From: a virus
Lineage: Duplodnaviria; Heunggongvirae; Uroviricota; Caudoviricetes
Strand: one strand, 5' to 3'
DNA: 64,000 bases
IMG/VR virus record: IMGVR_UViG_637000265_000001
Below, piece after piece: positions 1 to 3,000 of this stretch (position 1 is its first letter; each line of letters begins with the position of its first letter). Made by a program: the position numbers.

Positions 1-3000
1 TCGCTCGCCACGGGAATATCTGCGGCAGCGGGCTTGTAATGGGTTAAGTGATAACAGATGTCTGGAAATATAGGGGCAAATCCAGTATAAGCCATTATCA
101 AACCCACCCGTAGATAGGCTTTGTAATGGCTACTTCTTCAGAAATGATTCGATGAATTCACGTCGAGGATGACGATAGTTCAGAATATCTTCTGGCATCC
201 TCATAAAGCGGTTGTTGCCGTCTTTGGCAGTAACAAAACAGCTGTGAACTCCGCAGACATCCGTTTTGATCGTGTCGCTATACTCAAAAAGCAACTGAGC
301 CATCTTCTCTTGCCATTCTGGAGGCATAGCCTCCATGAATACTCGCGGCATCACGCAGAACGACGCATGCGTAAGACCAAACCACAGTTGCAGGTCTTTA
401 CGATATTCTTCATCCATCGTCTTTACCTTTGTTGCAATAAAAAGCCCCGCGAATGCGAGGCTAAATCCTGGTGTTTGTGATGACTGGCTCTTATCTAAAC
501 GCAGCCCCTTACCGCGCGCCAAATGCTCAACTTTAAGCATCAGCAATGAGATGTTTAATCTGGATTCACTCCAGAAGTGATCACCACCCTGTCTACAGAG
601 CCAGATGTGAAGGATGATGAGTAAAATTATCTCTATCATCGAAGGCATTGCGTCCTGATATATTCCTGAAGCGTTCTCAGTGCTGTCTGGTCTCTGATGA
701 TTCCGTCCCGGATACCGAGAACGTTTCGTCCAGCAACTGGAGAGAGTTCGACGGTGGCATCATTGCCCATGCCGGAGGCGCTGGAGGTTTCGGCTGAGGA
801 TGGCACAGGGCATTTTCCTTTGACGAGCACCCGACCACCATTATCAAGCTTGCGCCGAAGAGCATCATTTTCAGCTTTCGCATCAGCTAACTCCTTCGTG
901 TATTTAGCATCGAGTGCATCAGCATCACGCTGGCGCTGCTGCATGTCAGTAATGGTTGCGTTCGCCAGCTTCAGTTCTCCGGCGTTTTTGTCGCGCTGCT
1001 CTTTGTAGGTAATGGCGTTATCACGGTAATGATTAACAGCCCATGACAGGCAGACGATGATGCAGATAACCAGAGCGGAGATAATCGCGGTGACTCTGCT
1101 CATTGATCTATCTCCCAACAGGCTAATGCGCTTTCCTGGTCACGACGAATAACCTGTCCATAGCAGTTATTTGAACGTATGCGGCAATCGCGCCCAACAT
1201 CTTTTATCCACCAGCGAATCGCCTCGCATGCGCCCTTACGATCACCGGCATTCAGCCGCTTATAAAACGTCGACGGGAAACACTTACCGGGGCCAATGTT
1301 ATAGGGGCAAAATGACGCTATACCCGCTTTCTGGGGTTCGGTCAGAGGTACTTTAATATTGCGCTCCACCCATGCCAGCGCCTTATCACGTTCAATAGCG
1401 TTAACCTGGTCACATTTTTCCTTCGACAGCTTCATTCCCGGTATGACAGGCTTACCATCCACCATTGTGGCACCACGACAGATGGTCCATATGCCAGAAC
1501 CATCACGGTATGCCGTTGTGTGATTACCCTCTTTTTCGTTCAGAAACTGGTCAAGTATCTGGGGAGCAGACGCGCCTGCGGCAATCAGCGCCAGAACAGC
1601 AGCCGACAGGCCGTATTTGATTTTTGCGCTCATGGATATTTATCAGGATTTATCGGCAACAAATAACGAGCCAACTTATATACGCCTTTTAAGATAAGTC
1701 AGCCCCGGCTGGATCCAGTCATCAGGCTCTTTCTTAAAGGGGGAGTATTGAAATCACGAAGAAGAGCCTCCCGCACCGCAGCATCCATGTCTGCACCACT
1801 GGCAAGTGCTTCAATCTCTGCCGCCACCTGCAAATACCCCATGCAACGGCCAATGCGTTTCATAACTCTGGTGTTTTCGTCTTTCAGGCATCTGATAGCG
1901 AGATTAATAATTTTCAGGCAGTGATGATGCGATGCCCGGACAGGTTTTCCGTTCTCATAAACGACGAACTCACCCTCTTCACAGGAAACCCTGAAAGGCC
2001 GATGGGGTTCCTGGTCTTTATCCGGTGCAGACGCAATAAAATCACTTTTATGCTCTTCCTCTCCGGCACTGTTAACCGTAATGACGTACTCAGGCCGCAG
2101 GTAAGCCGCCTCTTTTTCTGACAATGCGGCCGGTAAAAACTTTTCCTGCAAAAACTTCATAAAAGTCTCGTGAGCGACTTTGTGGCAGTAATCGTAAATC
2201 GCCGCATAATGCTCATCGCGGCGTTTGTTTTCATCTTCAGAACTCACCAACGCCGACAAATTTTTTATTAAGCTCAGTGATTTCATTTTCCAGGTGATTG
2301 AATCGCTGATTCATTTCTTCATGCTTCATTATTTACTCTCCCCGTGCAGCCTTACGCTTGTCTTCTCTTATTTTGAAATATAGATTCGTCAGATAAGTCA
2401 GAAGCCCCAGAAGCAGACTTCCCAGCACACCAATCGCAGCCCACTGTGATGGCCTGACCTGATCCAACCACTGCAAAAACCAGTAGCCGGCACTGCCGGC
2501 GGAGGTGCCGTAGGCAATGCCCGTTGAAATTTTGTCCATGGATTTCATAGCCTCACCTCCGCAAATAACGGATGGCGTAGTTTTACACTGAGAAATGAAA
2601 GGGATTTGAAAAGAAAAACCCGCAAAAGCGGGCGAAACGATATATACAGTAAGGAAAGCACTCTATCCAACAAACCACCCACAGTTAATCGGAATAAAAG
2701 CAGAGTGCTTATGAATGATCGCCTGCCCGAAGGTTAGTATTTCTGCACAGCAATTTTGCAAAAAAAGCGATCATTCATAACTTAAACGTCTTTCAGTCAC
2801 TCCGGGATTTCCCATCATCGCAGACTGAAAGACTCTAACTGGAGCGGGCAGCGGGAATCGAGGTATCGAAGATAATCAGCCGCTAACCATTTGCTTCCTA
2901 AAGGATGATGAATCCTTGTGGTTACAGTTATGGTTACACATTAATTTATCTCTGGTCAAGTCCTCTCGTGACTCTGGAACGAGTAACCGAAGTCCTAACT

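Follow-up and report, generated by a model that had tools for sequence, protein, structure and literature searches.

Rz, the i-spanin of the lambdoid phages, acts together with Rz1 in the disruption of the outer membrane, which is the last step of lysis. For the genomes of these phages a 'boundary sequence' idea is reportedly to be found in Clark et al. 2001, a work that De Paepe et al. 2014 cite. Among the i-spanin families of Kongari et al. 2018 (PMC6139136), that of the lambda Rz/Rz1 spanins (PF03245/PF06085) is the largest. Mosaics in the lambdoid phages have been defined as BLAST matches of at least 100 bp with more than 90% identity between phage genomes that are diverged elsewhere, and the typical unit is a short segment of >90% identity, with a median length of 404-494 bp and about 95-96% identity (De Paepe et al. 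2014, PMC3945230). According to the same study, such mosaics arise by homologous recombination in which the phage recombinases are dominant, and lambda x DLP12 recombinants with R and Rz replaced are viable. Homologous sequences in prophages have also been considered as sites of chromosomal inversion. In E. coli O157:H7 the boundaries of prophage-bounded inversions map to large prophage repeats, in an analysis limited to repeats that were 5 kb or longer and 98% or more identical (PMC8743559), and the inversions of the Shigella flexneri 8401 genome have been attributed to IS elements in a published analysis (PMC1550401).

In this paper, we have analysed two Rz/Rz1 gene pairs in a window of 64,000 nucleotides, i.e. 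the whole stretch of DNA under study, which corresponds to about 237-301 kb of the chromosome of S. flexneri 5b strain 8401 (CP000266.1). The window contains two defective (decayed) lambdoid prophages, each with one Rz/Rz1 lysis gene pair, and the two Rz copies lie ~59.7 kb apart on opposite strands in the lysis cassettes of these two different prophages. The gene order is holin, endolysin and Rz in both cassettes, and in both the stop codon of the endolysin gene and the start codon of Rz overlap in the form of ATGA. The endolysin genes found 5' of the two Rz copies are unrelated, the left one encoding a phage-21/Qin-type lysozyme, whereas the right one is a frameshifted gene of the lambda-R type.

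The left cassette, which is read from the minus strand, is similar to those of phage 21, Qin and DLP12, in which a class II holin is combined with an rrrQ/rrrD-type lysozyme and RzpQ/RzpD. Its class II holin is of the phage-21 S type (2333-2548; PF04971, E = 5.5e-35), and its endolysin is a 177-aa lysozyme of the phage-21/Qin (rrrQ) type (1100-1633; PF00959, E = 5.4e-24), the stop of which overlaps the Rz start. Between the holin and the lysozyme genes, in a place where relatives have a DUF1327/YdfR gene, the cassette contains a 195-aa ORF, and no Pfam family is on record for it. The E. coli genome regions that match the left cassette are annotated as rrrQ/lysozyme, and when the complete E. 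coli genomes were searched with positions 1-4000 of the window, the coverage was at most 55% and the locus itself was not recovered. The orientation of the left cassette is divergent from that of the adjoining P22-like morphogenesis genes.

The right cassette, on the plus strand, is similar to that of HK544 (NC_019767; relatives HK446, mEp234 and IME10), to which positions 59900-62000 of the window are 97.6% identical over 100% of their length, and with which it shares the order holin, endolysin, Rz, terminator and KilA-N gene. Its holin is of the lambda S type (59984-60307; PF05106, E = 2.4e-30). Unlike in HK544, the lambda-R-type endolysin gene (60291-60768) is a pseudogene, now represented by ORFs of 108 aa and 65 aa. 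The frameshift is a one-base insertion near 60605, where alignment with the HK544 endolysin gene reveals one extra base. In addition, an IS600 after the KilA-N gene replaces the HNH/cos region of HK544.

The left Rz gene (636-1103, minus strand; 468 nt, 155 aa) matches PF03245 with E = 5.3e-30 (104.7 bits), and the right Rz gene (60765-61202, plus strand; 438 nt, 145 aa), which is of the HK544/HK446/mEp234 type, matches the same family with E = 7.4e-35 (120.4 bits), confirming the two oppositely oriented Rz genes that the initial annotation had recognized. The left gene starts with the ATG at 1103, the TTG at 1118 given in the ORF listing being upstream of this conserved start, and exactly the same left Rz protein is found in CP000266.1 and 11 other contigs. 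The o-spanin lipoprotein Rz1 is encoded at 677-883 on the minus strand in the left pair (68 aa, lipobox VVGC; PF06085, E = 3.7e-21, 75.0 bits), and at 60964-61149 on the plus strand in the right pair (61 aa, lipobox VSGC; PF06085, E = 1.2e-19, 70.2 bits). All four genes score above the curated Pfam cut-offs, which are 25.4 bits for PF03245 and 27.9 bits for PF06085. Both Rz1 ORFs lie wholly inside Rz in the +1 frame (frame offset = 1), and the lipobox Cys as well as a Pro-rich mature part can be read directly from the translations of both copies. Each Rz protein has a single N-terminal transmembrane anchor, with Kyte-Doolittle hydropathy peaking at 2.63 over residues 5-23 (19-residue window) and no second hydrophobic window. 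Judged by these sequence features, both genes are predicted to encode true i-spanins, each with an embedded Rz1.

In their N-terminal anchor, their +1-frame Rz1 and their position directly after the endolysin gene, the two pairs are like lambda Rz/Rz1. They differ from lambda in the central and C-terminal parts of Rz, which belong to two other types, namely the 155-aa type of Qin, mEp460 and PhiR47, and the 145-aa type of HK544. Between themselves, the left and right proteins are identical at 87/156 positions in Rz and at 23/72 positions in Rz1.

This overall divergence is very unevenly distributed along the gene. The homology between the two Rz copies begins at the ATG, and in the global alignment 108 of the first 112 nt (96.4%) are identical between the left copy (992-1103, minus strand) and the right copy (60765-60876, plus strand). 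The four mismatches, at gene positions 12, 54, 66 and 93, leave exact runs of 11, 41, 11, 26 and 19 nt; three of them are synonymous, whereas the fourth replaces Ile31 by Met. This shared 5' module comprises codons 1-37, i.e. the N-terminal Arg, the transmembrane helix and the juxtamembrane stretch, and the two proteins are identical at 37 of 38 residues over it. An identity of ~97% had previously been estimated for positions 1103-1000; exact alignment gives 100/104 (96.2%), and the estimate was therefore right within a point. The divergence that had been placed after ~100 bp is equally real: past nt 112 there is a 21-nt indel, after which the identity is 30-83% per 30-nt block. In a BLAST comparison of the window with itself, positions 874-1114 match 60973-60754 in inverted orientation with 77.6% identity over 241 nt (E = 9e-52), so that the similarity of the pair is far beyond chance, and beyond this match the downstream identity is ~50-60%. 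A second conserved stretch, which had been overlooked, adjoins the stop codons of both genes; this 3' patch is identical at 25 of 26 positions between 643-668 on the minus strand and 61170-61195 on the plus strand.

The pattern in the window can be compared with that in a population sample of 160 IMG/VR loci plus the window, which covers two Rz types, the 155-aa and the 145-aa type, chosen by similarity to the window genes. Over the first 112 nt, two sequences of the 155-aa type differ on average at 7.2 positions, two of the 145-aa type at 6.8, and two of different types at 7.9; like the pair in the window, 10.7% of the between-type pairs differ by at most 4 bases, and several 5' haplotypes are common to both Rz types. 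In the profile per 20 nt, the divergence between types over nt 1-100 equals that within types, at 4-9%. It jumps to 20-90% over nt 113-440, and is back at 7.5%, the within-type level, over nt 441-460. Both Rz types are found behind both kinds of endolysin gene: the 155-aa type follows a phage-21 lysozyme gene in 55 cases and a lambda-R gene in 26, and the 145-aa type follows them in 31 and 44 cases, respectively. Some association of the endolysin type with the Rz type remains (V = 0.27). As the IMG/VR contigs are redundant and phylogenetically non-independent, p-values for such associations are inflated and the linkage gradient along the module is semi-quantitative only: the polymorphic sites at positions 1-51 are linked to the type of the upstream endolysin gene (V = 0.16-0.42) and not clearly to the Rz type (V = 0.07-0.17), while those at positions 93-111 mostly have the reverse pattern, with Rz type over endolysin type and V up to 0.58. 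This switch of linkage from the upstream to the downstream gene points to crossovers inside the 112-nt segment.

These data bear on the possibility that the 5' end of Rz is conserved simply because a membrane anchor evolves slowly under purifying selection, the two genes having diverged anciently without recombination. It is true that most of the differences fall at third codon positions, and the near identity of the two proteins over the stretch is also as expected under such selection. However, constraint on the protein cannot keep synonymous sites ~93-96% identical in a gene of which the rest is 20-90% diverged, and the haplotypes common to both Rz types as well as the shift of linkage across 112 nt speak against this explanation, which we consider very unlikely. 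Still less plausible, to the point of being negligible, is that an element acting at the nucleotide level, such as a structured RNA, a signal for translational coupling or a regulatory site, keeps the segment constant. The ATGA overlap in both cassettes does suggest translational coupling, but the diversity at the first, second and third codon positions of nt 1-111 is 0.032, 0.022 and 0.147, respectively, and the last value is about twice that in the within-type remainder of the gene (0.06-0.08). The synonymous sites are thus not conserved but free to vary, the constraint is of the ordinary protein-level kind, and we have rejected a nucleotide-level element on this basis.

The module is by no means confined to strain 8401. 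It is 98.2% identical to lambda Rz (the value for the left copy), HK620 and mEp234, and 96.4% identical to phage 21 and HK544, and of 5426 complete E. coli genomes, 4647 contain it, at a median of 2 sites and a maximum of 8. Over 1.6 kb, 1 base distinguishes the left cassette from prophages of independent draft genomes, and every other contig with the right locus has exactly the same right 5' haplotype, which indicates that neither allele arose in strain 8401. The same data weigh against gene conversion within the 8401 chromosome, by which the two Rz copies would owe their similarity to local homogenisation. The number of differences within the pair, 4 sites, is indeed somewhat below the between-type mean, but as many as 10.7% of unrelated between-type pairs are equally or more similar. 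Furthermore, the left allele, including its 5' end, comes within the one base of 1.6 kb from independent draft genomes with a complete lambdoid early region, the right haplotype is unchanged in its other carriers, and there are no derived sites shared between the two 8401 copies. With both alleles present unchanged elsewhere, we have rejected intragenomic gene conversion, the likelihood of which we rate as extremely low. The module pair did not come from duplication or exchange within the 8401 chromosome; of the 'inverted paralogous segments' proposed in the initial annotation, the inverted orientation stands, while the local paralogous duplication has to be replaced by an Rz 5' module that is common to nearly all lambda-like phages.

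From the observed identity profile, the haplotypes shared between types, the way in which endolysin and Rz types assort, the gradient in linkage and the ubiquitous occurrence of the module, we conclude with a probability of roughly 0.85 that both segments represent the 5' module common to lambdoid Rz genes, inherited from the phage gene pool through ordinary phage mosaicism. The ~112-nt 5' module and the ~25-nt 3' patch would then belong to one freely recombining pool of alleles among lambda-like phages, and the middle of Rz, in which Rz1 is embedded, would fall into discrete types with strong divergence between them. By homologous recombination within the 5' module, a lambda-R or a phage-21 lysozyme gene would be joined to either Rz/Rz1 type, probably through phage Rad52-like recombinases acting during co-infection or in encounters between phage and prophage, and co-adaptation of Rz and Rz1 may keep the central types discrete. 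In strain 8401, two defective prophages with different endolysin/Rz combinations would leave the module present twice, here in inverted orientation. Under the definition of De Paepe et al. 2014 the segment is a mosaic, with 112 bp at 96.4% identity, which also agrees with the identity of typical mosaics (about 95-96%), the upstream flanks being unrelated and the downstream flanks having, as in other lambdoid mosaics, lower but detectable identity. Unlike the typical cases, it is close to the lower size limit, and both of its partners are defective prophages on one chromosome. The finding amounts to textbook-style lambdoid mosaicism and matters little on its own. The Rz pair is not special, the module being seen twice because there are two decayed lambdoid prophages in the Shigella chromosome.

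A more specific model, which we put forward tentatively, is that Rz is a locus of cassette exchange, in which freely recombining 5' and 3' arms surround discrete and deeply diverged central alleles, each with its own Rz1. The periplasmic domain of the i-spanin and the o-spanin co-adapted to it would be swapped as a unit and maintained as a balanced polymorphism, and the membrane anchor would be generic. The data on the two sampled Rz types fit such a model. Selection, whether for the matching of Rz with Rz1 or by the outer-membrane type of the host, is a candidate for what maintains the discrete central types.

It had also been suggested that the two inverted segments provide a substrate for further inversions between the prophages. 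RecA-mediated inversion of the ~60-kb inter-prophage segment through the 112-bp repeat is formally possible, since the copies are inverted on one replicon, and the longest exact run of 41 bp exceeds the minimal pairing length of RecA, which is 31-34 bp (PMC3945230). An exchange within the module would moreover be in frame and leave both Rz genes intact. The right prophage contains an intact-looking RecT ORF (46217-47119), and Rad52-like recombinases tolerate short and diverged homology (PMC3945230), but an IS1 is located between N and recT, which makes RecT expression doubtful. Against an inversion through Rz, the repeat is just 112 bp long with 3.6% mismatch, the 41-bp run is the only one above the RecA minimum, and a divergence of 4% lowers RecA recombination on E. 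coli plasmids ~10,000-fold (PMC3945230). Better inverted repeats are present in the same window, as revealed by its self-BLAST, namely two IS600 copies (20924-21761 and 63214-62377; 838 bp at 99.8% identity) and two integrase (int) fragments (40786-41144 and 64000-63642; 359 bp at 98.6%).

Products of such an inversion were looked for by exact-protein look-ups with the left and right Rz proteins, the endolysin fragment of 108 aa, the ORF at 130-648 and the KilA-N protein. In the 12 to 24 contigs read per look-up, a small sample of mostly short-read assemblies and hence a weak negative, only the parental arrangements and no hybrid junctions were seen at either locus. The Rz segments resemble the repeats in the documented cases of 8401 (PMC1550401) and O157:H7 (PMC8743559) in that they are homologous, inverted and located in two prophages of the same chromosome. 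Unlike those repeats, which are IS copies or, in the O157:H7 analysis, prophage sequences no shorter than 5 kb and at least 98% identical, they amount to 112 bp at 96.4%, and no inversion using the Rz repeat or recombinant junction was found among the contigs read. A meaningful role of the Rz pair in inversion is therefore improbable and weakly supported, the pair being a poor and very weak substrate, and it offers no credible new route to genome rearrangement since it is outweighed by the IS elements and the longer repeats of this region.

One contig, L015 (Logan SRR29016706), combines a phage-21-type lysozyme gene with a right-type Rz. Its Rz is preceded by the same 20 nt as the left copy and has the left allele at site 12 and the right alleles at sites 54, 66 and 93. 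We considered it as a recombinant derived from the two 8401 copies and rejected this origin, since its lysozyme gene is 3.2% diverged from that of the window and the spacer gene between holin and lysozyme is different, so that it represents another phage. A useful by-product of the comparison is a quantitative map of the exchange boundaries inside Rz across 160 viral contigs, in which the Rz1-bearing core is left as a unit.

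Both Rz genes of the window (636-1103 on the minus strand, 468 nt, 155 aa; 60765-61202 on the plus strand, 438 nt, 145 aa) match the Pfam profile of the bacteriophage Rz lysis protein (PF03245) far above the cut-off, and each contains in the +1 frame an embedded ORF (677-883 on the minus strand and 60964-61149 on the plus strand, respectively) with a match to the Rz1 lipoprotein profile (PF06085) and a lipobox cysteine. Together with the single hydrophobic segment at residues 5-23 of each Rz protein, these features identify both loci as genuine embedded-type two-component spanin gene pairs, and the initial annotation had named them correctly. 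Pairwise alignment also confirmed its observation that the two genes are nearly identical at their 5' ends and then diverge. The first 112 nt (992-1103 and 60765-60876, hereafter the segment) are identical at 108 positions (96.4%), with mismatches at gene positions 12, 54, 66 and 93 that leave exact runs of 11, 41, 11, 26 and 19 nt; over the span originally described as about 97 percent identical, exact alignment gives 100/104. The homology starts at the ATG; in both genes this codon overlaps the stop codon of the upstream endolysin gene, and the two endolysin genes are unrelated to each other. Past nt 112 there is a 21-nt indel followed by 30-83% identity per 30-nt block, and the identity is back up to 25/26 near the stop codons. 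A self-BLAST of the window recovered the pair in inverted orientation (E = 9e-52).

Both copies were compared with viral contigs, 80 per Rz type, i.e. the 155-aa type of the left copy and the 145-aa type of the right copy. The first 112 nt occur in 105 haplotypes, several of which are common to both types; two sequences of the 155-aa type differ on average at 7.2 positions, two of the 145-aa type at 6.8 and one of each at 7.9, and 10.7% of the between-type pairs match as well as the pair in the window or better. Up to about nt 100, divergence between types equals that within types (4-9%); it leaps to 20-90% over nt 113-440, which contain Rz1, and is down to 7.5% over nt 441-460. Both Rz types occur downstream of either endolysin type: the phage-21 lysozyme type precedes 31 loci of the 145-aa type and 55 of the 155-aa type, and the lambda-R type precedes 44 and 26, respectively. 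Polymorphic sites 1-51 track the upstream endolysin type and sites 93-111 the downstream Rz type (p-values for both are inflated, as the contigs are non-independent), and therefore historical crossovers took place within the segment. Its identity is 98.2% to the Rz gene of phage lambda and 96.4% to those of phage 21 and HK544, and 4647 of the 5426 complete E. coli genomes contain it, each at up to 8 sites (median 2). It might be supposed that a nucleotide-level element holds the segment constant, but the diversity at the three codon positions (0.032, 0.022 and 0.147) argues against this, the value of 0.147 at third positions showing synonymous sites to be free; the pattern is one of ordinary protein-level selection.

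The segment is the generic membrane-anchor module of lambdoid Rz, and the Rz pair is an unremarkable case of the mosaicism already known from lambdoid phages. The segment serves as a homologous-recombination joint at which interchangeable endolysin modules are linked to Rz/Rz1 modules. It fits the 'mosaics' that De Paepe et al. 2014 (PMC3945230) described in lambdoid phages, with a length of at least 100 bp and an identity of >90% (median about 95-96%); according to these authors, phage Rad52-like recombinases are the main players on short, diverged homology, and lambda x DLP12 recombinants with exchanged R and Rz are viable. Rz ranks among the most conserved lambdoid phage genes, the adjoining holin and endolysin being variable (PMC8136144, PMC8022706).

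Duplication or gene conversion within strain 8401 is excluded as the source of the similarity, since near-unchanged alleles occur elsewhere: a single base in 1.6 kb separates the left cassette from that of independent draft genomes with a complete lambdoid early region around it, and the right Rz 5' haplotype is identical across all other contigs having that locus. At the locus of window 1-1492, the 155-type Rz of S. flexneri CP026765.1 and CP026792.1 is another allele, which starts with GTG and is stopped at codon 3, and the lysozyme gene is truncated by an IS. As 29 of their 36 differences from strain 8401 over this interval fall in 809-1113 and none in 1-808, a recombination tract boundary lies within Rz at about nt 270-295, and not at nt 112.

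The near-identical ends had also been proposed as a substrate for further inversions between prophages. The inverted orientation stands, and exchange between the copies would therefore invert about 59.7 kb and give two in-frame hybrid Rz genes; the value of the repeat as a substrate is, however, marginal beside the nearby IS copies. Its exact run of 41 bp is longer than the minimal RecA pairing length of 31-34 bp (PMC3945230), but it is the only such run in a 112-bp repeat with 3.6% mismatch, and RecA recombination on E. coli plasmids is reduced about 10,000-fold at 4% divergence (PMC3945230). The window offers better inverted repeats: its IS600 copies share 99.8% identity over 838 bp, and its integrase fragments 98.6% over 359 bp. 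Inversions in the S. flexneri 8401 genome were ascribed to IS elements (Nie et al. 2006, PMC1550401), and prophage-bounded inversions in E. coli O157:H7 were mapped to large repeats, in a study that considered only those of at least 5 kb and at least 98% identity (PMC8743559). A RecT ORF (46217-47119) persists in the right prophage; an IS1 lies between N and this ORF, and presumably also parts it from the early-left promoter, whose position is inferred. The suggested population screen found no hybrid junctions around either Rz locus in the contigs read, weak negative evidence given a small, mostly short-read sample: a 145-type Rz and a KilA-N gene invariably come after the lambda-type holin and endolysin fragment, and upstream of the ORF at 130-648 there is always a 155-type Rz or an IS. 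One contig (L015) combining a phage-21-type lysozyme with a right-type Rz was rejected as a recombinant, since its lysozyme is 3.2% diverged from that of the window and its spacer gene is different, so that it represents another phage. In many short-read assemblies (L197-L201) the contig breaks off right past the Rz stop, 194 nt before the KilA-N gene, as would fit a break of the assembly graph at the Rz sequences held in common; rearrangements there are therefore hard to detect in draft assemblies.

Exact protein matches place the two Rz genes at ~237.3-237.8 kb and ~297.4-297.9 kb of the S. flexneri 5b strain 8401 chromosome (CP000266.1). This puts the window in the SHI-O/SfV region of Nie et al. 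2006 (PMC1550401), flanked on the left by a type VI secretion remnant with dnaQ/rnhA and on the right by thrW-proA. Both prophages are strongly decayed through IS elements. In the right one, a RecT-family recombinase ORF that looks intact survives along with a Gp157-like gene, and an IS4-family transposase breaks up the region right of the repressor; the intervals concerned are 46217-47119, 47893-48396 and 51694-53040.

In an intact lambdoid phage, lysis and morphogenesis genes share one direction. Within 1-19536, the left lysis cassette (130-2548, minus strand) points away from the adjoining plus-strand morphogenesis genes of P22/Sf6-like type, which start with an N-terminally truncated large terminase (6850-7914), continue with portal, scaffold and coat, and finish with an SLT-domain protein that is cut at 19536. 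An IS3-family remnant (about 5650-6856) separates the two groups. The opposed directions imply an earlier IS-associated rearrangement. Further right, a full-length integrase (40786-41946, minus strand) is followed by 75 nt (in 40525-40786) identical to the junction of the integrase fragment at the right end of the window and tRNA-Thr (thrW) (63626-64000; L010 13222-13480); about 46 nt of the tRNA-Thr 3' end lie within these 75 nt, and gtrA comes next, which is an attP-like configuration within the chromosome. The interval 21762-62376 is in phage order (portal, tail, gtrV/B/A, att, int, early genes, Q, lysis) and bounded by inverted IS600 copies. These two features suggest a tandem SfV-like lysogeny with later deletion and inversion through IS600, in which case both Rz genes may formerly have lain in direct orientation.

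The left Rz/Rz1 genes end a phage-21/Qin-type lysis cassette on the minus strand, preceded by a class II holin (2333-2548), a 195-aa ORF for which no Pfam family is recorded (1699-2286), where related cassettes have a DUF1327/YdfR-family gene, and a 177-aa lysozyme (1100-1633, PF00959). The right Rz/Rz1 genes end a lambda-type cassette on the plus strand, with an S-type holin (59984-60307) and a lambda-R-type endolysin pseudogene (60291-60768); this cassette, including the downstream KilA-N gene, is 97.6% identical to that of coliphage HK544. One extra base relative to HK544 near 60605 (TTGGCC vs TT-ACC) breaks the endolysin into ORFs of 108 and 65 aa, and as the identical 108-aa product is recorded in 12 contigs, the pseudogene is common to related strains. 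A terminator-like hairpin, AGCCTCGCATTCGCGGGGCT, with a T-run is found on the minus strand at 443-462 and on the plus strand at 61232-61257, and resembles the rho-independent terminator annotated after Rz in HK544. Since the left one falls inside the 172-aa ORF at 130-648, that ORF may be over-called, and the real gene may be the 95-aa ORF (about 130-417) placed downstream in some annotations.
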